A stretch of 38,969 bases of DNA from an uncultured Dehalococcoidales bacterium. Its GTDB lineage: Bacteria > Chloroflexota > Dehalococcoidia > GIF9 > AB-539-J10. A model generated the notes under the pieces. It saw only the letters and a program-made list of their open reading frames with translations. It had not been told where the DNA came from and did no database searches. The translations under genes were made by a program, and so were the position numbers. Below are positions 3,607 through 38,257 of this stretch, piece by piece (the stretch's first letter is position 1; each line of letters begins with the position of its first letter). The stretch covers positions 6,856-45,824 of the forward strand of contig CAZHQV010000001.1 of assembly GCA_964534285.1 (NCBI GenBank). The letters run 5' to 3'.

Positions 3607-4056
3607 ATGGATACCCTAGCCGAGTCCATGGATTTAGTGGGACACCTATTGGCATCAGAGCGGCTTGCCGTGCTTTCGACGCAGTATGGTGGGCAGCCAT
3701 ACAGCAACCTTATAGCATTTGCCTATACAGATAACCTGAAATATCTAATCTTCGTGACTAGTCGCAACACGCGCAAGTATGGCAATGTGTTGGCAGACAA
3801 AAGAGTGGCGGTTCTGGTTGATAGCAGGAAGCACGATACATCTGATTTTAAAGGTGCGATGGCAATAACGGCTCTAGGCACTGCGGAGGAAGGCACAGGC
3901 AGCGAAAGGGAGGAACTCTTGCGAGTGTACCTTGCCAAACATCCCCATCTGGAAGGCTTCGCGAACAACAGATCTAGTGCCCTCATTAAGATAAGCATAA
4001 GTGACTATATCATTGCACGTTTCGACAGTGTGCGCACTCTGCACATCAGCGATTGA
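3607..4056 (+). CDS. Pyridoxamine 5'-phosphate oxidase-family (FMN-binding split-barrel) protein
   Basis: 149-aa ORF. The N-terminal LAVLSTQYGGQPYSNLIAF and the later RKYGNVLADKRVAVLV are typical of PNPOx-like split-barrel proteins. Confidence 0.7.
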   Translation: MDTLAESMDLVGHLLASERLAVLSTQYGGQPYSNLIAFAYTDNLKYLIFVTSRNTRKYGNVLADKRVAVLVDSRKHDTSDFKGAMAITALGTAEEGTGSEREELLRVYLAKHPHLEGFANNRSSALIKISISDYIIARFDSVRTLHISD

Positions 4057-4080
4057 GGCTTGTCCTGTTGTCGCAGCCAG

Positions 4081-9182: not shown

Positions 9183-9788
9183 TCTAGCCCCCTTAAGAGT
9201 CGACGCGCTTCTATATGAGGTCGTACTCCCATTTGTGACTTGGCATGCCTCGTCGGCCTTCCTGCATCCTTGACCTTCGTAGCACTCCCCCTGAGAGACA
9301 CTATCTAGGCCTCTTGCCCCCGTTCTCTGCCGACTTCGCAGATCTCACCTTCGCGGAAGACAGCGCACACGTCCCGGGCTATTTCGGGGAAGTCCTACCG
9401 ACGTGATGAACTTAGGCCAGGCCTGCCTGGTGTGTGACGACAATAATAGCAGACAAGGGGCTTGCGGGCAAGATAGCTCGCTGTTTTGGCTCTTTGACGA
9501 CTGTGGTTCTCCTCTGGCGTGGTTACTGTTCTGGTGGAAGAACTTGAGCCGTGTCATGTGGTGGGGGTATTGGCATGATTGGTGGCCAGCGACAACGTTT
9601 CCTCATCGGCTAGCCAAGAAGACTGCTGCAACTCAACTAGGTCGAGTTGCCTGCTGCTTTTCAGCCGTCTGGGATTGAAGAATAGTGAGCCTTTTCGGTG
9701 TCTTGAGCAGTTCGGCGCATGAGACTACAATATTATACTTGGCACAGAAGGCGAATGCTTTCCACGATAAGCTGGTAGGTGATATCAG

Positions 9789-11516
9789 GTGGGTATGTCC
9801 GGCAAGAACCGAAGGGTGGCACCGGAGCCGTCAAATGAGTCGCGAAGGGCAGGCTTGCAGGATACAACTGCATGGGTGCAGGCGGACATGGAGATGCTCA
9901 TCGACATCCTGGAGACGCTGAGTGAGAGCGGGAGTATGAATGAATGCCTAGAGCGGCTGGTGGAGCATGTAAGGGACTATTCAGGATGTGGCTGTGTGGG
10001 GATCCGGCTCTTGGATGACGAGGGGAATATTCCTTACGCTTCTGCCATCGGTTTCAGTCCGGAGTTTCACGAGAGTGCAAGTCCTATATGTATCGAGTCC
10101 GACAAGTGTCTGTGCGCTAATGTGGTAATGGGCAACGTTGCTCTTGGGCCTCCGTTCCATACTGATGGTGGCTCCTTCCTAACCAATGGTATGACGGGGT
10201 TTCTTTCTTCGGCCCCCGAGGAGACCGGGGCCTGGAGGGGGAATGTGTGTAGCCAATGTGGCTATGAGTCCGTGGCGCTTGTGCCGCTGAGACATAAAGA
10301 CAGAACCTTAGGTCTAATCCACCTGGCTGATCAAATGGAAAACAAGATTCCCGTGGAAAAAGTTCGATTTCTGGAGCGGGTAGGGGCCTATGTTGGGGAG
10401 GCCCTGCACACCTTCATGGCTGATGAGGCGCTTCGAGAGAGCGAAGAGCGTTACCGGACTCTCTATGAAGACGCCCCTGTTGCCTACTTCTCCGTTGGGG
10501 GAAACAACTACATTGAGCGGGCTAACCGCAGTGCTACGGAACTACTTGGCTATAGCTTGGATGAGCTGATTGGGCGACCGGTGTTTGACCTGTATGCTGA
10601 TACGCCAAATGGGAAGGCGAAGGCACAGGAGCTGTTTCGGTGGTTTCTCGCTGGCGAAGAGATATGCGACCAAGAGCTGGAGATGTGCCGCGCCGACGGC
10701 AGTAACGTTTGGATTAGTCTGTCAGTGCGGCCGATTCGCGACAAAGAAGGACGGGTTGTGGCCAGCCGCTCGGCGATAGTGGATATCAGCGAGCGCAAGA
10801 AACTGGACGAGATGAAAGACGACCTTATCGGCCTTGTGTCCCATGAACTGCGTACGCCCTTGACTGTGATCATGGGCTCTCTGAATACGGTCTTAAGCGA
10901 GGGAGAACGTCTATCTGCGGAGGATACACAGCAGCTTCTGCAAGACGCAGCCCAGGAGACGGAGTCGTTGTCTCATCTGTTGGGAAATTTGCTTGAGCTG
11001 TCCCGTGCTCAGGCCGAGCGGTTGTTTCTTTACACCGAGCCAGTCAGCATCCAAAGCGTCATTGAAGAAACCGTTAGCAACATTAGCCGCCAATCTCCGA
11101 CACATCAGTTTGCAATAGACCTCCCCAAGCAACTTGCTCCGGTTGACGTTGACGCGTTGAGACTGGAGCGTATCTTGCTCAACCTCCTGCAGAATGCGGT
11201 CAAATACTCGCCCTCTGGCAGCCAGATAAGGGTCTTTGCCAAAGGGGAGAGAGAGCATTTGGTTGTTGGAATCAGCGACGAAGGCAGTGGTATATCTCCC
11301 CGCGATCAAGCCAAGCTATTTAGACCCTTCGAAAGGCTTGAAAGCTCAGAACCCGGCAGAGCTAAAGGGATTGGGCTGGGGCTACTAGTGTGTAAGAGGC
11401 TCGTGGAGGCCCATGGTGGCCAGATCTGGGTCGAGTCGGAACCTGGCCAGGGTTCTACCTTCTTCTTCAGACTGCCTTTCAGCCGCAGAGAAAAGGACGG
11501 CCACATTCCTTCTTGA
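9789..11516 (+). CDS. Sensor histidine kinase (Cys-rich GAF, PAS, HisKA, HATPase_c). No adjacent response regulator.
   Basis: H-box SHELRTPLT, N-box LLNLLQNAVKYS, G-boxes DEGSGI and GIGLGL. PAS segment after ESEERYRTLYEDAPVAYF. The start is uncertain (GTG 9789, ATG 9795 or the downstream MEML). Confidence 0.85.
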   Translation: MGMSGKNRRVAPEPSNESRRAGLQDTTAWVQADMEMLIDILETLSESGSMNECLERLVEHVRDYSGCGCVGIRLLDDEGNIPYASAIGFSPEFHESASPICIESDKCLCANVVMGNVALGPPFHTDGGSFLTNGMTGFLSSAPEETGAWRGNVCSQCGYESVALVPLRHKDRTLGLIHLADQMENKIPVEKVRFLERVGAYVGEALHTFMADEALRESEERYRTLYEDAPVAYFSVGGNNYIERANRSATELLGYSLDELIGRPVFDLYADTPNGKAKAQELFRWFLAGEEICDQELEMCRADGSNVWISLSVRPIRDKEGRVVASRSAIVDISERKKLDEMKDDLIGLVSHELRTPLTVIMGSLNTVLSEGERLSAEDTQQLLQDAAQETESLSHLLGNLLELSRAQAERLFLYTEPVSIQSVIEETVSNISRQSPTHQFAIDLPKQLAPVDVDALRLERILLNLLQNAVKYSPSGSQIRVFAKGEREHLVVGISDEGSGISPRDQAKLFRPFERLESSEPGRAKGIGLGLLVCKRLVEAHGGQIWVESEPGQGSTFFFRLPFSRREKDGHIPS

Positions 11517-13440: not shown

Positions 13441-13860
13441 TCATTCACCCATAATTTGAAGCATAATTTCTCGTGACCGCGGCCGGTTGTCGAAATCAAC
13501 GAACACTATTTGCTGCCAAGTGCCCAGGGTTAGTCTCTTGTCTACGAAAGGTATCGTCAGCGAAGCCCCGAGCACAGAGGCACGCACATGAGAATGGCCG
13601 TTTCCATCCCCCCAAGTTTTGTTGTGCTCATAGGGAAGGTTTTGAGGTATTACCCTGTCCCACATGTCTTTGAAATCGCTGACAAGCCTGGGCTCATATT
13701 CAATAGTGGTCATGCCGGCTGTTGAGCCTGTTATGAACAAAGTGACTGTACCATTGCTTATCCCTGACTGATTTACCTTCTCCGCAACCTCAGACGTTAT
13801 ATCGATAATGTCGCAGTTCCCCTTTGTTTGGATCGTGGTGCTCTTGGTAATTATGTTCAT
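13441..13860 (-). CDS. yjbQ: YjbQ/UPF0047 family protein (secondary thiamine-phosphate synthase)
   Basis: The internal ATG at 13860 gives 139 aa, MNIITKSTTIQTKGNCDIIDIT...GNGHSHVRASVLGASLTIPF...LGTWQQIVFVDFD, typical of UPF0047. The upstream part of the listed ORF is the translated repeat element (HCERSEAIS). Confidence 0.8.
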   Translation of the reverse strand: MNIITKSTTIQTKGNCDIIDITSEVAEKVNQSGISNGTVTLFITGSTAGMTTIEYEPRLVSDFKDMWDRVIPQNLPYEHNKTWGDGNGHSHVRASVLGASLTIPFVDKRLTLGTWQQIVFVDFDNRPRSREIMLQIMGE

Positions 13861-13879
13861 ATTCTCGTCTCCTCTCAAA

Positions 13880-13907
13880 GAGATTGCTTCACTTCGCTCG
13901 CAATGAC
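13880..13907 (-). repeat. Short hairpin repeat, GTCATTGCGAGCGAAGTGAAGCAATCTC (copy A)
   Basis: Read on the minus strand in the pyrK-yjbQ spacer. It has an ATTGC/GCAAT stem and is related to copy B at 20713-20746. Confidence 0.7.
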
Positions 13908-13918
13908 GGAATGATCGT

Positions 13919-14773
13919 TCATATTCGTACCTCCCTCCATATGATATCGTCCAATTCAAATATTGGCCCATCGCGGCATACCTGTTTTAGCCCTTTCTTA
14001 GTCTTCACGGTACAGGCATAGCAAGCTCCTATGCCGCATCCCATCCTTACTTCTAGCGAAACCTGGCATTTCTTAAGCTTGTCGTTTGCCGAGTCTGTCC
14101 TGACCCGGGTTGCCTGGCCGTTCTGCTCCCTCGGAATGACGCGAAGCGAAGGGCCCTGGGTGACAATCTGGTCTGCCATTGCTCTGTACATATCGACTGG
14201 TCCGCAGGCACATATTTGGTCGGCCCAATCCAGGAAATGAGGCAAGACATCGGTTACTATGCCCTTTTGGCCCATGCTGCCATCCTCCGTAACCGGGACG
14301 AATCGAACTAGCTCGGGCAAGGACTGTTGCTGGCAGAGACGAGCAGCCGTGGTTGCTCCGTGAATGAGAGTTACTGAGTGTTGTGCTGAACCATTCTGGG
14401 CCAAGAAGACAATAGGAGCAATGCCTATGCCTCCAGCCACCAGCAGCAAGTTGGTAGCTTCCCGGTCTATGCTGAACCCCTTGCCCAAGGGCCCAAGAAT
14501 GTCTATCCTGTCTCCTCTCCTGAGCTGTGAGAGCCAAAGAGTGCCTCTGCCCACTATGTTGAATAGTAGAGCAACTTGAGATTGATTCGCTTCACTTACA
14601 ATAGCAACTTGGTGTATGCTGAAAGGGCGACGGAGTGCCAGCCCTTCGCAGCGCACGGTAATAAATTGCCCTGGTTGTGCTGCCATGGCAATGTCTGGCG
14701 CCTCTATCCACATGATGTTCACACCAGGCATGAGTTCTGTATTGGAGTTGACAGCGGCGAGGAGCTGCTTCAA
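13919..14773 (-). CDS. pyrK: Dihydroorotate dehydrogenase (class 1B) electron-transfer subunit PyrK
   Basis: 284-aa FAD/NAD-binding ORF with the C-terminal 2Fe-2S motif CGIGACYAC...CRDGP. Its TTG start overlaps the carB stop (TTGA). Confidence 0.85.
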
Positions 14774-17700
14774 TTGGCCTTTTGCAAGGTTAGATATTCC
14801 CTGAGTGGTTGGATAGTGAAAATCTGATCAACGTTCGTCAGCGCTTCTATGGCGGCCCAGGCGGTATCTAACGAGGTGAAGCACGGTATTCTCTTTTCTG
14901 CAGCAGCACGCCTGATATCAAACCCGTCCTTTAGTGGGATACGCCCTCCGGTTACGGTATTGGTCACTCCATTCACAGAGTTGTCGCGGATAACATCAAC
15001 CACATTCGGGTGTCCTTCGCTCAGTTTCTTCGTCACCATTTTCACTGGAAGCCCTATGGCCTCAATCATAGCCGCAGTCCCTTCCGTGGCGTAAAGCCCA
15101 TAGTCAAGTGAATGTAACTCTCTGATCAAGGGCAGCGATTCAGCCTTGTCTCTGTCTGCAATGCTAAGGAGGAGACTGCCCTTTGGAGGCAGCATGAGTC
15201 CGGCGGCTGTAAGCGCCTTCAGTAAGGCAGGCTTGAAGCTGTAGTCGATGCCCATGACCTCACCTGTGGATTTCATCTCAGGGCCGAGGTAATTGTCCAC
15301 GCCGGTTAGCTTGGACATGGAGAAAACAGGAGCCTTTATCCCCACAAGTTTTTGTCTCTTCCATAATCCACCTTGATAGCCTTGTTTTTCGAGGCTCACG
15401 CCGGCCATTACTTTGGTGGCGATTCGGACCATAGGCACGCCAGTCACCTTGGAGATGAAGGGCACGGTTCGACTGGCACGAGGATTCACTTCGAAAACGT
15501 ATACCGATGAATGCCCATTTTCTCTCATGATCACCATTTGGACGTTCATTAAGCCCTTGATTTGCAGAGCCAATCCTATTCTGGTGGCGTAATCCCCCAC
15601 GGTCGCTACCTCTTGTTCAGTCAAATTCATCCCAGGGTAGATAGCTAGGGCGTCCCCACTGTGCACCCCAGCCCTTTCTATATGCTCCATTATGCCTGGG
15701 ATAAGCACCTGCTGCCCGTCACCAATAGCATCTACCTCGACTTCTTTACCCTGCAGGTATTTATCAATGAGAACCGGGTGCTGGCTATCTAGCTCCAGAG
15801 CCAATGTCAGGTAGCGAATTAGTTCAGTCTCCCCGTGGACAATCTCCATAGCCCTACCACCCAGAACATAGCTAGGGCGAACCAGCAATGGATAACCTAA
15901 GGACTTGGCTACTTTCAGTGCTTCTTCAATCGACGATACACCAGACCCCGGAGGCTGGGGGATACTCAACCTGTCTAGGAAATCCTCAAAGCGATGGCGG
16001 TCTTCAGCTATGTCTATAGCTTCGGCGCTGGAACCAAGTATGGGCATGCCGTTACGAGCTAGAGGCTGAGCCAGGTTGATAGGCGTTTGTCCACCAAGTT
16101 GAACAATAGAGGGGGGAGCAAGGTCGCCATGGCTTTCGTTCTCAAGTATATCTCGAACGCTCTCTTCATCCAGAGCTTCGAAGTAGAGGCGGTCGCTGGT
16201 GTCAAAATCGGTAGAGACTGTTTCCGGATTGGAATTCACTAAGATGCTCTTGACGCCCACTTCCTGAAGCGCCCAGGCTGAGTGCACGCAGCAATAGTCA
16301 AACTCAATCCCTTGTCCAATTCGTATGGGGCCACTGCCGATAACTACAGCCTTCTTGCCCCTCAAGGGTTCAGCTTCATTCTCCTTCTCATAAGTACTGT
16401 AGAAGTAAGGAGTCTCAGCATCGAATTCCGCAGCGCAGGTATCCACCATTTTGTACACCGGGCGAATTCCCCACTGACGGCGAATTTGCCTTACCTGCTC
16501 CGGTAGTCTGTCGGCAAGGACGCCAGCTTGTTCATCACTGAAGCCCAGCCTCTTTGCCTCCCATAGGAGTTCTGGCTTCAACGTCTCAGAGAGAAGTCGG
16601 CTTTCCATGTCAACGATGTTCTGAAGCTTATAGACAAACCACGGGTCTATGCCGGTGAGGCGAGAGAGCTCTTCAGGCGTGGCTTCCCTTCTTAGCGCTG
16701 CCATGATGGCCCAAATCCGCAAGTCATTGGGATGCAGCGGGTAGGAATCCATCCCTTCGCCCTTGCTCCAAGCGGGGTCTTCCCAGAGAAGAGTTCGGTT
16801 GCCAAATTCCAGGGAGCGGACTGCCTTTTGCACGGCAGCCTCAAAACACCTGTCAATTGTCATTACCTCGCCGGTGGCTTTCATCTGGCTGCCGATTGCG
16901 CGATCGCCCAAGGCGAATTTGTCGAAAGGCCACCTTGGGATTTTGACCACGCAATAATCCAGAGCGGGCTCAAAAGACGCCAGCGTTTTGCCTGTGACTT
17001 TGTTGGGTATCTCATCAAGCCTTTTGCCTATAGCTATCTTGGCAGCGACTCGAGCGATGGGGTATCCCGTGGCTTTGCTCGCCAGAGCTGAGCTGCGGCT
17101 GACGCGCGGATTGACTTCAATTACGTGATATTGGCTTGCTGCAACTCCTTTCTGGTCTGGAGCCCACTTTTCAGCAACTACTGGGTGAGGAGTGAGGGCA
17201 AACTGTATGTTGCAGCCACCCTCAACGCCTAGAGCCTTTATGATTCTCAGGCTTGCTGACCTAAGCATCTGATATTCCTTGTCGGTGAGGGTTTGACTGG
17301 GAGCTACCACAATGCTGTCGCCGGTATGGACCCCCATAGGGTCAACGTTCTCCATATCACAGACGGTAATGCAGTTGTCGGCGGCATCTCGCATAACTTC
17401 ATATTCAATTTCTTTCCAGCCCAGAACGCATTGCTCCACCAGGACTTCATGGCTCATGCTGCTATCCAGGCCATTTGCCACTATGGCCTCTAGCTGATTC
17501 ATGGTGTGGGCAATGCCGCCGCCAGTACCACCCAGGGTATAGGAAGGGCGGACGATGAGAGGCAAGCCGATAGACCTCGCCAGCTCTGCAGCTTCCGCCA
17601 CCGATTTCACTGTGGCGCTCTGTGGCACAGGCTCGCCAATATCGATAAGAAGTCTCTTGAACAAAGACCTCTCCTCTGCCTTCTTTATCGTTTCCACAGG

Positions 17701-18045
17701 CGTGCCCAGAAGCTTTACGTCGTACTTGTCAAGTATGCCGGCGTCGGATAACTCCACCGCCAGGTTTAGACCCGTCTGACCTCCAAGAGTGGGCAGCAAT
17801 CCGTCGGGACGCTCCCTCTCAATCACGCGGGCCAGGACTTGCACGGTGAGAGGCTCAATGTAGACGATGTCAGCAATGCCCTCATCGGTCATTATGGTAG
17901 CAGGGTTCGAGTTCACCAGGACTGTGGTGACGCCTTCTTCCCTCAGGGCCCGGCACGCCTGAGTTCCTGAATAGTCGAACTCGGCCGCTTGGCCGATGAT
18001 TATCGGTCCCGAGCCTATGACTAAGACTTTAGATATTTTGGACAT
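14770..18045 (-). CDS. carB: Carbamoyl-phosphate synthase large subunit
   Basis: Duplicated ATP-grasp architecture plus an MGS-like C-terminus. Canonical N-terminus [27 protein letters not shown] from the ATG at 18045. The listed ORF adds 17 non-conserved codons. Confidence 0.95.
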
Positions 18046-18049
18046 ATTC

Positions 18050-19138
18050 TCACTGCTCACTAGATTCCATCTGTTGGCATAGAGCCATAACAGCATCTTG
18101 AAAGTTCCTTAGATTTTCTGCTTCCGTAAGAACCATTGTTGTTATACCAGGGAATTTACCGATGCTTACAACCTCTTCACGGATGTTAATACCCGGAATC
18201 TCATTTAATTTTGCTCTGAAGGATTCTAAAATCACTTCTTTTACGTTTGTGCCTTTCATTTGTCCAAAGTTGAGCCAAATCCAACCATCGGACTGAACTG
18301 TGAAAATTGAGACCAAGATTCCAAATCTTAGCTTGCGAAAGGTGAACGACCCTACCAATGCTCCGGTCCCCCAAGATGTCTTATCTGCGTTGCTCTTGGT
18401 GAAGTCATATAGTTCCTTAACGGTATTTACTGCCTCTTCCTCACATTTTCCTTCTAAATCGGTGAAGAACCTTTCCTCATCCCAATGCTTTCTTTTCTCG
18501 CGTGTTTTGGTAATTCTAGTAGCATATCCAAATAATGATGGGATTAAAATGCTCCTCGACCTACTTTCCTCGAAGCTACTTACCTGGAGAAGCAGAATAT
18601 CAAAATTACTGTAGGAATTAAGGAAGGTAACGGTTGCCCTGAGCGGCTCAACAAGCTCGTCTACTGCTATAATGCATCGTATTTTACCGTCTATTAGGTT
18701 CTGCTCGATGTTAGACCTGAAATCCTCAGCCAAAAATTCCTCTTCACTCCTTTCCCCTATAATTTCATCAAGATTCGATTTTAGGTAACCGTTGGCCACT
18801 CTATAGACATCATCTGCCGTCCACTTCGATATGTAAGAGGCGTATTCTATGATCTGTCCAATAACTGTGCGGCGTGCCTCAGGATTTCTAGCCAACTTAG
18901 TCTCTATTACAGTTAGAAGCCCATCTTTATCAATAAAGAGTAAATCTATAGACCCTGAAGGAACACCGACTTCCCTCCCGATGCATAGAAGGTCAGAGGC
19001 ACCCTCTACTATTTCCCCTAGCGGGATTAAAGACGGATACTTCTCCAGATAATCCTGCAACTTACCCTCCTCAGTGAATCTAGTCTTGTCTAGGGGTGTT
19101 GCTTTGTCTCCTTCAATAACCAGTATCATTCCCATCAT
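18050..19138 (-). CDS. Hypothetical protein with an N-terminal PD-(D/E)xK (NucS/DUF91-like) nuclease domain and an unrecognised ~230-aa C-terminal region
   Basis: 362-aa [19 protein letters not shown]...[54 protein letters not shown] fits the RecB-like nuclease pattern (D...D...ExK...Q..Y). The DNA is AT-rich compared with its flanks. Its stop lies 4 nt before the carB ATG. Confidence 0.6.
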
Positions 19139-19172
19139 GACTATTCGTGGCCCAAGTCTTCTTGAGCACTCT

Positions 19173-19580
19173 TCATTGACTCTTCTCTATTACACAAGCA
19201 GCTATGCTAGGGAAGGGGTCAGGGTACAATTCGTTCACGTATCCCCATACTACGACTTTGTCCCCATCGGATAGCTTACGACATGCTGAGTTAACCCATT
19301 TTCGCCAAGGCGAATTCGTAGTCACCTTGTAAATGTGACCGTCTCTACCATACAGGTAGAACTCATAATGATCTTCGATGTACCACAAGTCAGAAATCGT
19401 GCCGTAAACGTACACATCATCCATAAAATACAAATCTGGCAACAATACCAAGGCACTCCAATTAGCCTCCACTGCATCGCTTTTGTCATATTTCAGTCCA
19501 GGCTGACTTAACCACCACACCCCCACTACTATGAGCCCAATCACCACGGCTGCTATCAAAACATACTTCCAACGTTTCAT
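19173..19580 (-). CDS. Hypothetical membrane-anchored protein (one N-terminal TM helix plus a ~100-aa soluble domain)
   Basis: The internal ATG at 19580 (GGAAGGGAA upstream) gives MKRWKYVLIAAVVIGLIVVGVWWLSQPG... The longer listed ORF would overlap the carA 3' end. AT-rich like its neighbour. Confidence 0.5.
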   Translation of the reverse strand: MKRWKYVLIAAVVIGLIVVGVWWLSQPGLKYDKSDAVEANWSALVLLPDLYFMDDVYVYGTISDLWYIEDHYEFYLYGRDGHIYKVTTNSPWRKWVNSACRKLSDGDKVVVWGYVNELYPDPFPSIAACVIEKSQ

Positions 19581-19599
19581 TTCCCTTCCTTCATGCCTT

Positions 19600-20712
19600 T
19601 CACCTCCCAACCATTTCCAGAAACCTCTCAAATAGACACATATTGTCATAAGGGCCGGGGCAAGCTTCTGCGCTGTACTGAACAGACAGAATGGGCAAAT
19701 CCCGGTGGCGGAGACCCTCCACCGTGCCATCGTTCAAGTTCATGTGGCTAACCTCAAGTCCTCCTTTCAAAGTATCGGCGTCTATGGCATAGCCATGGTT
19801 CTGGGCAGTGATGTGGATCTTGCCAGTGACCAAGTCTCGCACAGGATAGCTGCCTCGATGCCCGAACTTGAGCTTCATGTTTTTCGCACCAAAGGCCTGA
19901 CCAATCAGATTGAGCCCCAAGCCAATACCCAGTATTGGCTTTTTCTCGAGAAGTTTTTCTATTGTCTTCACCACATAATCGAGCAGACCGGGGGTGCCTG
20001 GACCAGATGACAGTACAATACCATCGGCAGCTAGAGTCAGGATGTCTTCTCCTGAGCTGGTGTATGGGACAACAGTCATTCGACAGCCAAGTTGGCTCAA
20101 GATGCGCAGTATGTTGTATTTCAAACCCAGATCAACAACTACGAGGTGGATGCCATTTGGCTGCTTGCTCCCAGCCAATAGCGGTCGGTCATCACCCTCA
20201 CGAGGCTGCCACTCGTATGAGTTCTCGGTGCTAACTTGACGGACAAGGTCAAGTGAGGCATAGGTGGGCAAGCCTCTCAGCTCTTCTAGTGCCTCTTCAG
20301 CTGTTACTTCCGAAGTGAGGATACCCATCATAGCTCCTTCCGAGCGTATGTGGCGCGTCAAAGCGCGTGTATCTATGCCACTAATTCCGGGAATGCCGTA
20401 AGCAAGCAGAAATTCGTGTAGAGTGCGGGTGCTTTGCCAGTGACTGGGTTGGAAGCAACATTCTCGGACAGCTAGACCTCTTACCTGGACTCCCCCGGAT
20501 TCGAAATCCATTTCATTGATGCCGTAGTTGCCCACCAAAGGATACGTAGGAACTAAGATTTGGCCAGCAAACGAGGGATCTGTGAGCATCTCCTGATAGC
20601 CTGTCATGCTAGTGTCGAAAACAACCTCACCACAGGCTGTGCTCTGGGCACCAAAGGCATCCCCTTCGTAAACTGAGCCATCCTCAAGAACTAGAATAGC
20701 TTTCTCAGTCAT
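19600..20712 (-). CDS. carA: Carbamoyl-phosphate synthase small (glutamine amidotransferase) subunit
   Basis: 370-aa ORF with the CarA N-domain MTEKAILVLEDGSVYEGDAFG and a class I GATase C-domain (ILGIGLG, HRGSYPV). Confidence 0.95.
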   Translation of the reverse strand: MTEKAILVLEDGSVYEGDAFGAQSTACGEVVFDTSMTGYQEMLTDPSFAGQILVPTYPLVGNYGINEMDFESGGVQVRGLAVRECCFQPSHWQSTRTLHEFLLAYGIPGISGIDTRALTRHIRSEGAMMGILTSEVTAEEALEELRGLPTYASLDLVRQVSTENSYEWQPREGDDRPLLAGSKQPNGIHLVVVDLGLKYNILRILSQLGCRMTVVPYTSSGEDILTLAADGIVLSSGPGTPGLLDYVVKTIEKLLEKKPILGIGLGLNLIGQAFGAKNMKLKFGHRGSYPVRDLVTGKIHITAQNHGYAIDADTLKGGLEVSHMNLNDGTVEGLRHRDLPILSVQYSAEACPGPYDNMCLFERFLEMVGR

Positions 20713-22114
20713 CAGATTGCGTCGTCACTGCGCTCCTCGCAATGACAGGGGGCAAATCCGTGTAGACTATCTTGCCGTTGACTATGGTTGCCATTACCTT
20801 GCCCTTGAATTTGTAGCCGTCAAAAGGAGTGTTCCTCCCCTTGGAAGCAAAGTCGCCGCTGTTCACCACCCATTCTCGGTTGGGGTCTAATATAGTGATG
20901 TTGGCTGGAGCGCCCACTTTCAAACTGCCCAATTGACTGCCTTTGCCAATGATTCTGGCTGGCTCACGAGTCAGCTTGGAAATCAGCGTAGCGAGGCTTA
21001 TTTCCCCTTTGTGCACCAGGTTCATGAGGCAACCAAAAGCAGTCTCAAATCCGCTAATGCCGAAAGCGGCCAACTCTAGCTCACAGTCCTTGTCCGCAAA
21101 TGTATGCGGCGCATGGTCCGTAGCAATAGCATCAATCACGCCATCCTTGAGTGCCTCAATTAGGCACTCCACATCATCTCTAGTCCTCAGGGGCGGGTTT
21201 ACCTTGGCATTCGTATCGTATCGAGCTCGCTTCGCTGCTGTCGCAAGGGCGTTATTGTCTTTGCGCCGGTCCTTCCCCATTATTCTCTCCTCGGTCAAGG
21301 TTAGATGATGGGGGGTAACCTCAGCAGTTACCGAAATGCCATCTTCCTTAGCCCGCCGTATGAGTTCCACTGAACCACGGGTGCTTACATGGGCGATATG
21401 AAGCTTGGCTCCAGTCAGTTTGGCCAAAGCTAGGTCACGGGCCACCATGCTCTCCTCAGCCGCTGCGGGGATTCCTTTCAAGCCCAGCCTACTAGACACC
21501 CAGCCGTCGTTTATTATCCCATCCTTGCTCAGTGCTTCGTCTTCGCAGTGGTCTATTATGGGCAGTCCTAATGTATGGCAATAGTCTAGGGCACGGCGCA
21601 TGACTTCTGAGTTGGATACCGGGCTGCCGTTATCGCTGAAGGCAATGGCCCCCGCTTCTGCTAGCTCAGCAAAGTCACAAATCTGCTCACCTTTTCTGCC
21701 CTTGGTGACGCAGCATATGGGAAGAACGTCGACAGAGCCTTCTTTGCTCGCCTTCCGTTTCACCCAATCTACAACAATTGGGTTATCCAGTGGCGGGTTG
21801 GTGTTTGCCATGCAACAAATGGTAGCGAAGCCACCTATAGCGGCTGCCCTTGTTCCTGTGGCGATTGTCTCTTTATCCTCAAAGCCAGGTTCACGAAGAT
21901 GGCAGTGAAGGTCTACGAATCCAGGACAGACTACAAGCCCTGTGGCATCAATTACTGCTCGGTCAGGCTGAATCGCTATTTCCCCTCCCGCCGCCTCGAT
22001 ATTGCCTTTGTACACAAGAAGGTCACTAACCTGGTCTATAGCTTGGCAGGGGTCAACGATACGCCCGTGGCGGATAAGCAAAGGGAGTGATTCGGCATCT
22101 ATTGTTCCTTTCAC
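20705..22114 (-). CDS. pyrC: Dihydroorotase
   Basis: 469-aa amidohydrolase ORF with DLHCHLREPG and DHAPH motifs. Its last ~15 residues are encoded by repeat copy B. Overlaps the carA start by 8 nt. Confidence 0.9.
   Translation of the reverse strand: MKGTIDAESLPLLIRHGRIVDPCQAIDQVSDLLVYKGNIEAAGGEIAIQPDRAVIDATGLVVCPGFVDLHCHLREPGFEDKETIATGTRAAAIGGFATICCMANTNPPLDNPIVVDWVKRKASKEGSVDVLPICCVTKGRKGEQICDFAELAEAGAIAFSDNGSPVSNSEVMRRALDYCHTLGLPIIDHCEDEALSKDGIINDGWVSSRLGLKGIPAAAEESMVARDLALAKLTGAKLHIAHVSTRGSVELIRRAKEDGISVTAEVTPHHLTLTEERIMGKDRRKDNNALATAAKRARYDTNAKVNPPLRTRDDVECLIEALKDGVIDAIATDHAPHTFADKDCELELAAFGISGFETAFGCLMNLVHKGEISLATLISKLTREPARIIGKGSQLGSLKVGAPANITILDPNREWVVNSGDFASKGRNTPFDGYKFKGKVMATIVNGKIVYTDLPPVIARSAVTTQSDD
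20713..20746 (-). repeat. Short hairpin repeat, GTCATTGCGAGGAGCGCAGTGACGACGCAATCTG (copy B)
   Basis: Read on the minus strand, with an ATTGCG/CGCAAT stem. It lies inside the last codons of pyrC (translated as VIARSAVTTQS) and ends immediately 5' of the carA ATG. Confidence 0.7.
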
Positions 22115-22159
22115 TACTCTTCGTCAAGCATGCTTCAATGATGGACCGCGAACATAGCT

Positions 22160-24209
<2,050 letters not shown>

Positions 24210-24227
24210 TTAGCATGTCTCCCCTTG

Positions 24228-24257
24228 CCAGCCTCACTGGACTGATTTAAAGGCTGG
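24228..24257 (-). promoter_or_regulatory. PyrR-binding RNA stem-loop (pyr attenuator binding loop)
   Basis: Minus strand reads CCAGCCT-TTAAATCAGTCCAGTG-AGGCTGG. It contains UUUAA and CAGUCCAG(u)GAGGCU, which differs from the remembered PyrR box consensus ARUCCAGAGAGGCU at one position. It lies ~85 nt upstream of pyrR. Confidence 0.7.
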
Positions 24258-36116: not shown

Positions 36117-37556
36117 TCAATCCATTATGCCCGGGATTTCTGATAACACTTTCTTCCTAACAGAAGATGGGAGTCTGAACTCATGTTCGGAAAGGAGTTG
36201 CGAAACCCTCTCCTTTGCTCTCCTACAGGCATCCTTCCTCCCTTCGCTCTCCCATTGCTCCCTGGTGAGTCGGTCACTCAAGCTAGGGTAGTAATGCTCA
36301 CTGCGCATGTGCTTCCTGGTATGCGCGGAGGAGATAAAGTGCCCTCCTGGGCCCACCTCCTTAATGACATCAAAGGCAAGCGTATCGTCATCCACCTTTA
36401 CGCCCTCCACTGCACGCATGACCATACCCAGAATCTCGTTATCTATGACATACTTCTCATAGCTCACACTGAGGGCGAATTCCATCATGCCGGCAGCGTC
36501 GTGAATGAAGTTAGCGCCTGCCAAGGCGCAAAGAAGGCTAGTGAGAGCCGACTCATAGCCGCACTGAGCATCAACGACCTTGGCATCGGACATCCCAGCG
36601 GTGGCATAGAACGGGAGCTGGTAGAATTGGGCCATCTGAGCCGCGGCGGCGTTCAACAAGCCCATTTCAATGGAGCCTGTTACATACTTCAAATCTCTTA
36701 GGTCTGTGTTGCTGGCCACAGAGCCATAGATTACAGGTGTGCCTGAATTGACAATCTGAGTCACCAGCACCCCGGCGAGGGAGTCCACATTCTGTATCAC
36801 CAGAGTTCCTGCTAAGGTTACTGGAGACGTGGCTCCGCACAGCGGCTCTGCCGGGCACACTACCGGCACCCCTGCTTTGGCGATTTGCACGAGCATGTCG
36901 CCATAGAGCCCGTCTATCTTCAGGGGACTTATGCTGCAGGTTATCATCGAGATGAGTGGCCTGCGGCGAAGTTCCTGTGGCGAACCGCGGATGATCTCTG
37001 CCATCCTTATGGCTTGCCTTATGCCGTCGAGCGTGTAGACGCCTCCCATAACATGCTTGGTGGTGTTGTCCAGTGCAGCGAAGAAACGGTTGACATCTAC
37101 GTGTTCAGGAGTAACATCACTCGGATAAACAGGGAGCATGAAGAGGTGGATGTTCTCCAGCTTGTCTACAAGCCGAGTTATGCGCTTGAGGTCGTCGAGG
37201 GTTGCCTGCCTGCTCAGACCTGTGTCTGAATCAACGATGTTGAGTGCGGTGCCACCGGTCCCTGCGTAGACCTTGGTACCACCCAACAGAACATCATGGT
37301 CTTCATCTTGACCGCATAGTCTAACCTGGGACGGGGCTGTACTCAGGAGATCCATAACCATCCGCGAAGGCATCCTCACGATACGCCTTTCGCTATCAAC
37401 CCAAGCTCCTGCCTGGCTGAAGAGACCGAGCGCGGTTTCCGAGTTTACCTCGAAGCCTACTTCCTCGAAGACCCTTAATGAAGCTTGGTGGATTTTGTCT
37501 ATGGATTCTTGAGAGAGGGGTTTATAACTACCCCCCTCCAAGCCCTTTCGACTCAT
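36117..37556 (-). CDS. MttB-superfamily protein, non-pyrrolysine type, paralogue 1
   Basis: The ATG at 37556 (ATGA overlap with the upstream gene) gives MSRKGLEGGSYKPLSQESIDKIHQASLRVFEEVGF... The internal FFAALDNTTKHVMGG...IRMAEIIRG matches the family. Uninterrupted frame. Confidence 0.85.
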   Translation of the reverse strand: MSRKGLEGGSYKPLSQESIDKIHQASLRVFEEVGFEVNSETALGLFSQAGAWVDSERRIVRMPSRMVMDLLSTAPSQVRLCGQDEDHDVLLGGTKVYAGTGGTALNIVDSDTGLSRQATLDDLKRITRLVDKLENIHLFMLPVYPSDVTPEHVDVNRFFAALDNTTKHVMGGVYTLDGIRQAIRMAEIIRGSPQELRRRPLISMITCSISPLKIDGLYGDMLVQIAKAGVPVVCPAEPLCGATSPVTLAGTLVIQNVDSLAGVLVTQIVNSGTPVIYGSVASNTDLRDLKYVTGSIEMGLLNAAAAQMAQFYQLPFYATAGMSDAKVVDAQCGYESALTSLLCALAGANFIHDAAGMMEFALSVSYEKYVIDNEILGMVMRAVEGVKVDDDTLAFDVIKEVGPGGHFISSAHTRKHMRSEHYYPSLSDRLTREQWESEGRKDACRRAKERVSQLLSEHEFRLPSSVRKKVLSEIPGIMD

Positions 37557-38257
37557 AACCTTCTGCTGGGACAGTCCGTCTTGTTGCAGAAAAGACAGGG
37601 AGAGAGGGTTATAGAGGGATCGAAGCCTATGCCTATGATCCCGGAGATAGATTTCCTGGGCATCATTAGGCAATCCTCAGTCAATTCAACTCCTTGCAAA
37701 TCTCCATCGAGAGCATTGAATAGCACCTTCTGCTGTCTGATGTCCCAATCGCAGTAGCCTGGGCTATAGCGCAGGCTTACGTCGGCGCCGCTTGCCGCAG
37801 CCGTCTCCCTGACGCTTCCTTCAAGCCAACAAGCCAGCTCCTCAACTGCTTCACTGCCTACAGCATCCAATACTGCGCCTTTGAGTATTTCGCCGGCATC
37901 CATTAGCCGTAACACCCTATCCTCTAATCTCGGTCCGATCGTGGTCAAGAATATGGCCGCTTTGGAGCACTTGGAGAGTATTCGCCGGGCGATTATGTTG
38001 CTGCTAAATACTATGTTGGTTCCCCTCACTGATATGCGAGAACCGTCAACACTGTCTACCTCTCTGATTACACATGAATACCAAGGCTGGATAAGCCCAT
38101 AGGCTTCCGATATTTGTTCATCTATTACCGAAGATATATGTGCTGTAGGTTCCCTCTCGGCCGCATAGCCCAAATATCTATGTACTTCCCTTCTGTCGAT
38201 ACTTATTTTGTCTGTTGCTAAGGTGCGCACCACCGAATTCCCTTGGTATTTTCTCAC
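37553..38257 (-). CDS. Stand-alone vitamin-B12-dependent methionine synthase activation-domain (SAM-binding reactivation module) protein
   Basis: 234-aa ORF with a GTG start. ...LRYSPGYCDWDIRQQKVLFNAL...GVELTEDCLMMPRKSISGIIGIG matches the Met_synt_B12 (PF02965) pattern RxSPGY.DW...Q..lf. Confidence 0.7.
   Translation of the reverse strand: MRKYQGNSVVRTLATDKISIDRREVHRYLGYAAEREPTAHISSVIDEQISEAYGLIQPWYSCVIREVDSVDGSRISVRGTNIVFSSNIIARRILSKCSKAAIFLTTIGPRLEDRVLRLMDAGEILKGAVLDAVGSEAVEELACWLEGSVRETAAASGADVSLRYSPGYCDWDIRQQKVLFNALDGDLQGVELTEDCLMMPRKSISGIIGIGFDPSITLSPCLFCNKTDCPSRRL

Follow-up and report, generated by a model that had tools for sequence, protein, structure and literature searches.

Why are carA and carB, the genes for the two chains of carbamoyl-phosphate synthase (CPSase), kept apart by two foreign-looking genes in the pyrimidine (pyr) operon of an uncultured Dehalococcoidales bacterium, and what do these genes do? 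The stretch of DNA analyzed here (38,969 nucleotides [nt] of contig CAZHQV010000001.1, referred to as the window) carries a carA-to-carB distance of 1,554 bp, occupied by two open reading frames (ORFs) of 135 and 362 amino acids (aa), which we call small135 and nuc362. Comparisons with other loci (designated by L numbers) suggest that this insert is probably a defense-type nuclease module, residing in a hotspot at the carA-carB junction that is embedded in the pyr operons of Dehalococcoidia. The insert and its flanks are made up as follows.

19600-20712, minus strand: carA, CPSase small chain (Pfam CPSase_sm_chain, 5e-53; GATase, 1e-38), the upstream flank of the hotspot
19600-19602, minus strand: carA stop codon TGA, read from the sequence
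19581-19599, minus strand: 19-nt spacer with the purine-rich ribosome-binding site GGAAGGGAA, the left edge of the conserved module
19173-19580, minus strand: small135, a 135-aa ORF with a transmembrane helix (about 19509-19565) and a C-terminal part that is rich in beta structure and possibly OB-like
19206-19552, minus strand: hypervariable middle of small135, a predicted ectodomain, delimited by DNA comparison with L081
18050-19138, minus strand: nuc362, a 362-aa ORF, the upstream neighbor of carB
18524-19138, minus strand: N-terminal PD-(D/E)xK nuclease domain of nuc362 (residues 1-205), placed by the PDC-S11 profile, Foldseek, and alignment
18944-18946, 18902-18904, and 18896-18898, minus strand: codons of the nuc362 catalytic residues D65, E79, and K81, respectively
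18053-18517, minus strand: C-terminal domain of nuc362 (residues 208-362), of unplaced fold and variable across the family
18046-18049, minus strand: 4-nt spacer GAAT between the nuclease TGA and the carB ATG, read from the sequence
14770-18045, minus strand: carB, CPSase large chain (Pfam), with its ATG at 18045 and a conserved 5' end that would serve as a recombination anchor

An initial annotation, made from the sequence alone, had described an AT-rich two-gene insert that separates carA from carB by 1.55 kb, starts 19 nt after the carA stop, and ends 4 nt before the carB ATG, and our measurements agree with this description. The guanine-plus-cytosine (GC) content is 0.39 to 0.46 over positions 18000-19650, versus 0.50 to 0.59 in carA and carB (300-nt sliding windows; about 0.52 for the flanks), and 34 nt lie between small135 and nuc362. 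Neither a sigma-70-like promoter nor an intrinsic-terminator-like site was found on the minus strand inside the insert, in line with the further proposal that carB is expressed by read-through. The same nuclease-GAAT-ATG(carB) junction occurs in independent assemblies (L081 to L083), and its AAAT variant occurs in L090 and L092, which rules out an assembly artifact; a GAAT/AAAT junction between the nuclease stop and the carB ATG is also present in L101. The closest carA genes (identity of ≤72%) all come from metagenome-assembled genomes (MAGs) of Dehalococcoidia.

Homology and structure comparisons point to a nuclease function for nuc362. In an alignment of 39 homologous sequences, E56, D65, E79, T80, K81, Q95, E98, and Y99 are invariant; judged from this alignment, they are the PD-(D/E)xK site and the RecB-type QxxxY motif. 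The best PADLOC match was the PDC-S11 model PDLC04916 (E = 3.8e-23; residues 8-230 of 362, profile positions 10-216 of 358), four other PDC-S11 models matched with E values from 3.6e-15 to 5.7e-9, and homologs in L139, L142, and L170 match PDC-S11 as well. By these profile matches, nuc362 is, through its catalytic domain, a member of the catalogued candidate family PDC-S11. The PDCs are 145 untested candidates, identified by their location within BREX, DISARM, or type I restriction-modification operons (10.1101/2024.01.29.577857). The top Foldseek matches of the AlphaFold model were the NucS/EndoMS structures 5gke and 2vld (probability, 0.99), which, together with the invariant D65/E79/K81, upholds the NucS/RecB-like nuclease module that the initial annotation had recognized. 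Lower-ranking matches included Shedu SduA (8ps4; probability, 0.75; template modeling [TM] score, 0.25) and Hachiman HamA (8vx9; probability, 0.20), with TM-scores of 0.21 to 0.25 overall, and no Shedu (DUF4263/SduA) or Hachiman model was among the PADLOC matches of nuc362. The sole viral fold match (297 columns) was gp54 of Bacillus phage G, which has no assigned function. The Pfam NucS_C match was weak and below the cut-off (E = 0.023), the NCBIfam NucS model (NF003270) scored 19.9 bits versus an equivalog cut-off of 216, and neither Pfam nor NCBIfam yielded a match to the NucS N-terminal DNA-binding domain; about 45 residues precede the nuclease core in the AlphaFold model.

The C-terminal domain (residues 208-362), when modeled alone, forms a confidently predicted unit (AlphaFold predicted local distance difference test [pLDDT], 94.4; predicted TM-score [pTM], 0.88). 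Submitted to Foldseek by itself, this domain had no significant counterpart in the PDB (best E = 0.18), and nothing significant was found in Pfam, PHROGs, NCBIfam, or PDB sequence and profile searches. Across the nuclease family, the alignment contains at least three divergent C-terminal variants. This family is large, with 7,305 representative clusters at an E value of ≤1e-3 and 835 at ≤1e-30 in an exhaustive profile search, and its members are mostly 350 to 390 aa long and matched over their full length. The initial annotation knew of no described system with this architecture; the nuclease, at least, does have a described family, namely, this large one, which overlaps PDC-S11. Relatives with 25 to 30% identity are encoded on plasmids of Rhodococcus, Escherichia, haloarchaea, and others, and the two annotated plasmid neighborhoods are accessory regions with transposases. 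No homologs of the nuclease were found in viral contigs or phage records, and a phage origin of the cassette was rejected on this ground.

The insertion had been taken as a singular event; the survey of junctions identified it instead as one tenant of a clade-wide hotspot. Among 71 Dehalococcoidia loci holding both carA and carB, the gap between the two genes is ≤120 nt in 36 (mode, 21 to 26 nt) and 143 to 4,006 nt in the other 35. Nearly all of these 35 inserts have a lower GC content than their flanks, and their credible genes are oriented like the operon. Their cargo includes toxin-antitoxin genes (i.e., HicA/HicB, MNT with HepT/NTase_sub_bind, and VapBC-like pairs), AbiJ_NTD4, CAP12/Pycsar-type TIR proteins, Hypoth_Ymh, HEPN_AbiU2, GIY-YIG, DUF559, PDC-S35, and a PolB-exonuclease-like protein, as well as an N6_N4 methyltransferase with an EcoRII-C nuclease in a Dehalococcoides mccartyi MAG; many other cargo proteins have no family match. 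The junction therefore presents variable cargo between conserved flanks, as in a core-gene-flanked defense hotspot, with defense enrichment judged from the abortive-infection, toxin-antitoxin, TIR, restriction-modification, and PDC domains of the cargo. Two cargo genes are of a metabolic type: L004 carries a putative carbonic anhydrase (3630-4061; Pro_CA_2, 2e-53) and L031 an archaeal-type phosphoenolpyruvate (PEP) carboxylase (9734-11254; PEPcase_2, 1e-194) between carA and carB. These may be functionally coupled to their flanks, because carbamoyl-phosphate synthase uses bicarbonate.

The nuclease itself is a rare occupant of the junction in these loci, being present in 1 of the 71 (L006), and 34 of the 35 occupied sites hold unrelated cassettes. 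A survey starting from the nuclease (100 loci, clustered at 95% identity into 75 lineages) found 42 lineages flanked by carA and/or carB, 6 located elsewhere, and 27 on contigs too short to tell, so that 42 of the 48 lineages of determinable context reside at the car junction. Even homologs that are only 34 to 40% identical, in hosts with a GC content of 68 to 70%, are found there. Outside the car locus, the nuclease adjoins an N6_N4 methyltransferase with a BsaWI-type nuclease, a PycTM protein, DUF6946, IS110, or an integrase fragment, contexts which, by gene content, look like defense islands. In L095, it follows pyrC, and carA is absent from the locus. Where carB 5' DNA is 90% identical, as between L155 and L166, the nucleases can be only 39% identical; conversely, no pair with a near-identical nuclease in diverged flanks was found among 26 dereplicated loci, the largest excess of nuclease over carB 5' DNA identity being 0.07 to 0.08. 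This pattern of divergence fits long residence with allele replacement among relatives and argues against recent sweeps.

Scars at the junction suggest how cassettes may enter it. Orphan copies of the carB 5' end (its first 17 to 110 nt) always lie between an older, carA-side cassette and a newer cassette followed by intact carB. The stubs end at the following carB positions.

L084: +17
L137: +28 and +59
L055: +35
L157/L167: +37
L095, L166, and L168: +63 to +68
MNT cassette lineage in L002, L025, and L126: +71
L154: +79
L025 and L174: +110

L137 preserves a three-layer stack (carA, nuclease, stub, small135, stub, GIY-YIG, and carB), and comparable 5' stubs derive from the nuclease (L106) and from the exonuclease-like gene (L110, L111, and L143). 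No carA 3' orphans were found in the gaps searched for stubs, and across loci protein identity is 84 to 92% for carB versus 59 to 72% for carA. In L084 (6001-7107), a 17-nt tandem copy of the carB start is joined onto the end of the nuclease gene, and carA, having lost its own stop, extends 33 nt into that gene (402 aa). We infer from these scars that carB is the homology anchor for cassette entry. Incoming DNA would recombine homologously within carB and be joined illegitimately upstream, as in the homology-facilitated illegitimate recombination that PMC3240628 defines. A second possibility is that the DNA between a stub and carB loops out as a circle, which then reinserts in a Campbell-type manner by a single crossover, and either route would place the newest cassette beside carB with a fresh carB start.

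Two other entry mechanisms were considered and rejected. Site-specific recombination at a fixed crossover in carB was suggested by a first tblastn search, in which orphans clustered at +60 to +80 and several lay beside GAG|TT; when the search was extended to the DNA level, stubs of 17, 28, 35, 37, and 110 nt came to light, and the spread of breakpoints from +17 to +110 disfavors a single fixed crossover. The initial clustering is plausibly explained by a detection limit together with the instability of long repeats. An integron-like cassette array was rejected by spacer length, as the spacers of 19, 34, and 4 nt are too short for attC (the attC model was not run), and no integrase was found in the operon. 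As a separate observation, L095 contains an IS200/RAYT-like Y1 transposase ORF (1737-2441, judged by motifs) flanked by an orphan carB 5' stub on one side and by a carB paralog of only 46% identity on the other.

The initial annotation had offered two readings of the insert, a defense module and a selfish element, and the second of these fares worse. It holds that nuc362 is a free-standing, homing-endonuclease-like gene that would cut the empty carA-carB junction or the carB 5' end and be copied in by double-strand-break repair, with other cargo hitchhiking. Free-standing homing endonuclease genes, such as the seg/mob genes of phage T4, likewise consist of a nuclease in a short slot between conserved genes, with a patchy distribution and a low GC content. 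The concentration of lineages at one junction (42 of 48), the conserved stop-GAAT/AAAT-ATG boundary, the rare and patchy distribution (1 of 71 representative genomes), the AT-rich gene, and the intact catalytic site are all compatible with such an element. Unlike a homing site, however, this junction is shared with dozens of unrelated, nuclease-free cassettes; the orphan breakpoints define no single cut or insertion point; near-identical flanks contain divergent alleles in place of the near-identical nucleases in diverged flanks that recent sweeps would leave; and the family is large and widespread in non-homing contexts, occurring on plasmids and in defense-island contexts with an exonuclease-like partner, with no viral copies found. 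We consider this explanation unlikely. The defense module, in turn, is favored by the PDC-S11 match and by the defense-type contexts and cargo.

The partners of the nuclease bear on the next alternative. As initially noted, small135 has a single N-terminal hydrophobic helix (Kyte-Doolittle 19-residue maximum of 2.65 at residues 7-25). Its family is small (6 clusters in a large database), the alignment contains invariant MKR.KY, VYV.G, C100, VWG, and terminal IEK motifs, and Pfam OB-fold matches are subthreshold. A hidden Markov model detected small135-like genes in 15 loci, and all 15 immediately adjoin a nuclease homolog, either upstream of it (the window, L081, L114, L124, L139, L174, and L106/L107) or downstream (L137 and L175 to L178). 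At least 33 car-flanked nuclease lineages have neither small135 nor an exonuclease-like partner. The identities of the two proteins are uncoupled: an 80% identical small135 can stand beside a 51% identical nuclease, and a 37% identical small135 beside an 88% identical nuclease. The latter case is the comparison with L081, which encodes a 156-aa small135 homolog preceded by HicB rather than carA. At the DNA level, the two loci are about 90% identical over a tract that begins with the last 33 nt of small135, spans the nuclease, and enters carB; identity is 92% over the 19-nt spacer and the first 28 nt of small135. Since the intervening middle of small135 (~350 nt) has no detectable DNA similarity to L081 while both flanks are 90 to 92% identical, the predicted ectodomain appears to be a swapped, hypervariable segment.

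The second recurrent partner, the PolB-exonuclease-like protein (PF10108/PF13482, DEDDh-like), is encoded in 17 loci and adjoins the nuclease in 16 of them, usually just upstream of it at sites other than the car junction and on its downstream side in L006 and L154. In L142 (4473-6098) and L156 (878-2068), the exonuclease-like gene and the nuclease make up a single uninterrupted ORF, perhaps a natural fusion, which would tie the two proteins together functionally. In L139 (4573-6134), small135 and nuclease homologs follow pyrC at the operon end, carA and carB are absent from the locus, and convergent ThiS/ThiF-like genes lie downstream, so that small135 and the nuclease can move together to places other than the carA-carB junction. 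Small135 is tied to the nuclease, and the nuclease has alternative partners or none. The linkage implied by the original description of a two-gene module thus stands, and an obligate pair does not, given that the nuclease usually occurs without small135 and that both gene orders exist.

These observations weigh on the possibility of a toxin-antitoxin or addiction module, in which the nuclease would be a toxin and small135 or another neighbor its neutralizer. The pair would be retained because cells that lose it die, and it would play no part against phages. Toxin-antitoxin pairs (HicAB, MNT/HepT, and VapBC-like) abound in the hotspot, and small135 was never seen without the nuclease. The nuclease is nonetheless tolerated alone in the at least 33 partnerless lineages, gene order varies, and a membrane-anchored protein with a probably mostly extracytoplasmic mass is an atypical antitoxin for a cytoplasmic nuclease. 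This explanation is somewhat less probable still than a homing gene.

The operon in which the insert lies is ordered, on the minus strand, pyrR-like, pyrB/I, pyrC, carA, small135, nuc362, carB, and pyrK, with the following features outside the junction.

24142-24257, minus strand: putative PyrR-binding leader RNA (Rfam RF00515, matched over the whole model, 1-115), just ahead of the PyrR-like gene
23553-24161, minus strand: PyrR-like phosphoribosyltransferase (Pfam Pribosyltran, 6e-23; UPRTase, 3e-6), the first operon gene
22160-23569, minus strand: pyrB/I fusion
20705-22114, minus strand: pyrC
13919-14773, minus strand: pyrK

Because the insert has no signals of its own and precedes carB, which is presumably indispensable, the cassette must be read through, and it is plausible from this layout that its expression is coupled to pyrimidine status. 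A housekeeping role, in which a vertically inherited, NucS-like repair or nucleotide-salvage nuclease would form part of pyrimidine metabolism, is the least likely of the alternatives: the gene persists in pyr operons (even in the carA-less loci L095 and L139), its GC content follows that of the host, it co-diverges moderately with carB, and bicarbonate-related genes represent metabolic cargo at the same site, but the nuclease is found in 1 of 71 related genomes, in half of which carA directly adjoins carB, it has no NucS N-terminal domain and falls far short of the NucS bit score cut-off, it lies 10 to 14 GC points under its flanks, and divergent alleles have been swapped within near-identical flanks.

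Several further features of the window and related loci were recorded. Two more GC dips (0.43 to 0.46) occur at 22050-22500 (3' part of the pyrB/I fusion) and 13650-14100 (pyrK/UPF0047 boundary). GC-rich palindromic repeat units are found at gene ends in the window (about 20705-20750, at the pyrC 3' end, and about 13861-13971) and also in the carA-carB gaps of L052, L055, L057, L063, L070, L118/L119, and L137. Their translations read ...RSEAIS..., ...ARSAVTTQS..., or ...SLRGAQRRSNL..., and in L118 and L119 a ccccttcccctt...aaggggaagggg hairpin immediately follows carA. These repeats look like elements of the repetitive extragenic palindromic or miniature inverted-repeat transposable element (REP/MITE) type. 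Elsewhere in the window, the Rfam model PYLIS_3 (mttB pyrrolysine insertion sequence) matches at 36494-36593 on the minus strand (54 bits; gathering score, 38), inside a 518-aa ORF (36117-37673) that is open across the match, with no in-frame UAG evident there.

We return to the reading of the insert as a defense-type module in a hotspot. The module lies between translationally tight neighbors and contains, in nuc362, a cytoplasmic nuclease of the NucS/Shedu fold with intact catalytic residues. Under this reading, nuc362 would most likely degrade invading phage or plasmid DNA, with specificity or control residing in the C-terminal domain, which would be swappable. Small135 would act, where present, as a sensor or modulator in the envelope, and the PolB-exonuclease-like protein would take its partner slot in other loci. 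The module would be expressed within the PyrR-led pyr transcript by read-through, and, because carB must be read through, only promoterless, terminator-free, and co-oriented cargo would survive at the site. Neither clade-wide conservation of the two genes between carA and carB, nor a non-nuclease fold or missing D/E/K residues, nor a flat GC profile was found. The compared junctions share a location, with breakpoints that are not fixed.

A number of observations count against this reading. The PDC-S11 profile aligns with the nuclease domain only and leaves the C-terminal domain unaligned, and neither PDC-S11 nor the nuc362 family has an experimental tie to phage resistance. The whole-protein AlphaFold model is of moderate quality (pLDDT, 79.8; pTM, 0.50), and its TM-scores to NucS are low (0.19 to 0.30). 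The leader RNA match (46.7 bits; E = 3e-4) is below the gathering score of 54. The carbonic anhydrase and PEP carboxylase are non-defense cargo at the same junction. The nuclease GC content, while consistently about 10 to 14 points below that of the flanks, follows host GC with this offset, and nuclease and carB 5' DNA divergence are moderately correlated (Spearman rho = 0.58); ancient residence followed by losses, and not ongoing flux, could therefore account for much of the nuclease distribution. The carB-anchored entry mechanism is drawn from scars only, and the clustering of stubs at 60 to 80 nt could hide a site preference.

The module can be set against described systems. PDC-S11 resembles nuc362 in the nuclease domain (the N-terminal two-thirds), in overall length (~350 to 380 aa), and in being often a stand-alone gene. 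The profile match ends at about residue 230, however, and the gene here lies in a biosynthetic operon with recurrent partners. NucS/EndoMS shares the RecB-like PD-(D/E)xK domain with D...ExK and QxxxY motifs; nuc362 differs by the missing NucS N-terminal domain, an extra 155-residue C-terminal domain, and a patchy accessory distribution. Shedu (SduA) and Hachiman HamA are defense-island nucleases whose fold is of the same superfamily, and SduA works as a single-gene system whose accessory domains vary. Their structural similarity to nuc362 is weak, however, and the accessory domain of nuc362 is C-terminal and unplaced.

The locus also has counterparts. In Pseudomonas aeruginosa and Xanthomonas citri, an unrelated ORF is cotranscribed between carA and carB (PMC4619228); as described, it differs in being a single small ORF of unassigned function that is not reported to be variable, AT-rich, or defense related. 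Sequential displacement with orphans has been proposed for the type VI secretion system immunity arrays of Vibrio cholerae, with homology-facilitated illegitimate recombination invoked (PMC5361080). These arrays and core-flanked defense islands resemble the carA-carB hotspot in having variable modules between conserved flanks that displace one another or stack and leave orphans. The carA-carB hotspot differs from them in its position within an essential biosynthetic operon, where it separates the genes for two subunits of one enzyme; all of its cargo is promoterless and co-oriented, and its scars are 17- to 110-nt duplicates of the 5' end of the downstream gene.

A bolder interpretation, which we regard as tentative and rather doubtful, is that the carA-carB junction represents a new kind of immune locus, i.e., a promoterless, carB-fed cassette stack in an essential, PyrR-attenuated operon. 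The expression of a rotating set of defense genes would there rise in proportion with pyrimidine starvation, which phage infection itself brings about, and the nuclease with small135 or the exonuclease-like partner would form a new two-component defense system on a PDC-S11 scaffold. No prior description of the combination of these partners, the carA-carB hotspot, and the carB-stub scars was found in the literature.

Dehalococcoidia have small, streamlined genomes and are genetically hard to study, and how they store and exchange immune genes is poorly known. PDC-S11-like nucleases gain two candidate partners, namely, a membrane protein with a swappable ectodomain and a DEDD-type exonuclease-like protein, maybe fused to the nuclease in some loci. 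The carB 5' stub offers a simple scar for dating and ordering acquisitions in metagenomes. If this picture of the junction holds, a pan-immune gene pool would both land in and be expressed from an essential biosynthetic operon, with read-through as the selective filter and a conserved gene start as the recombination anchor.

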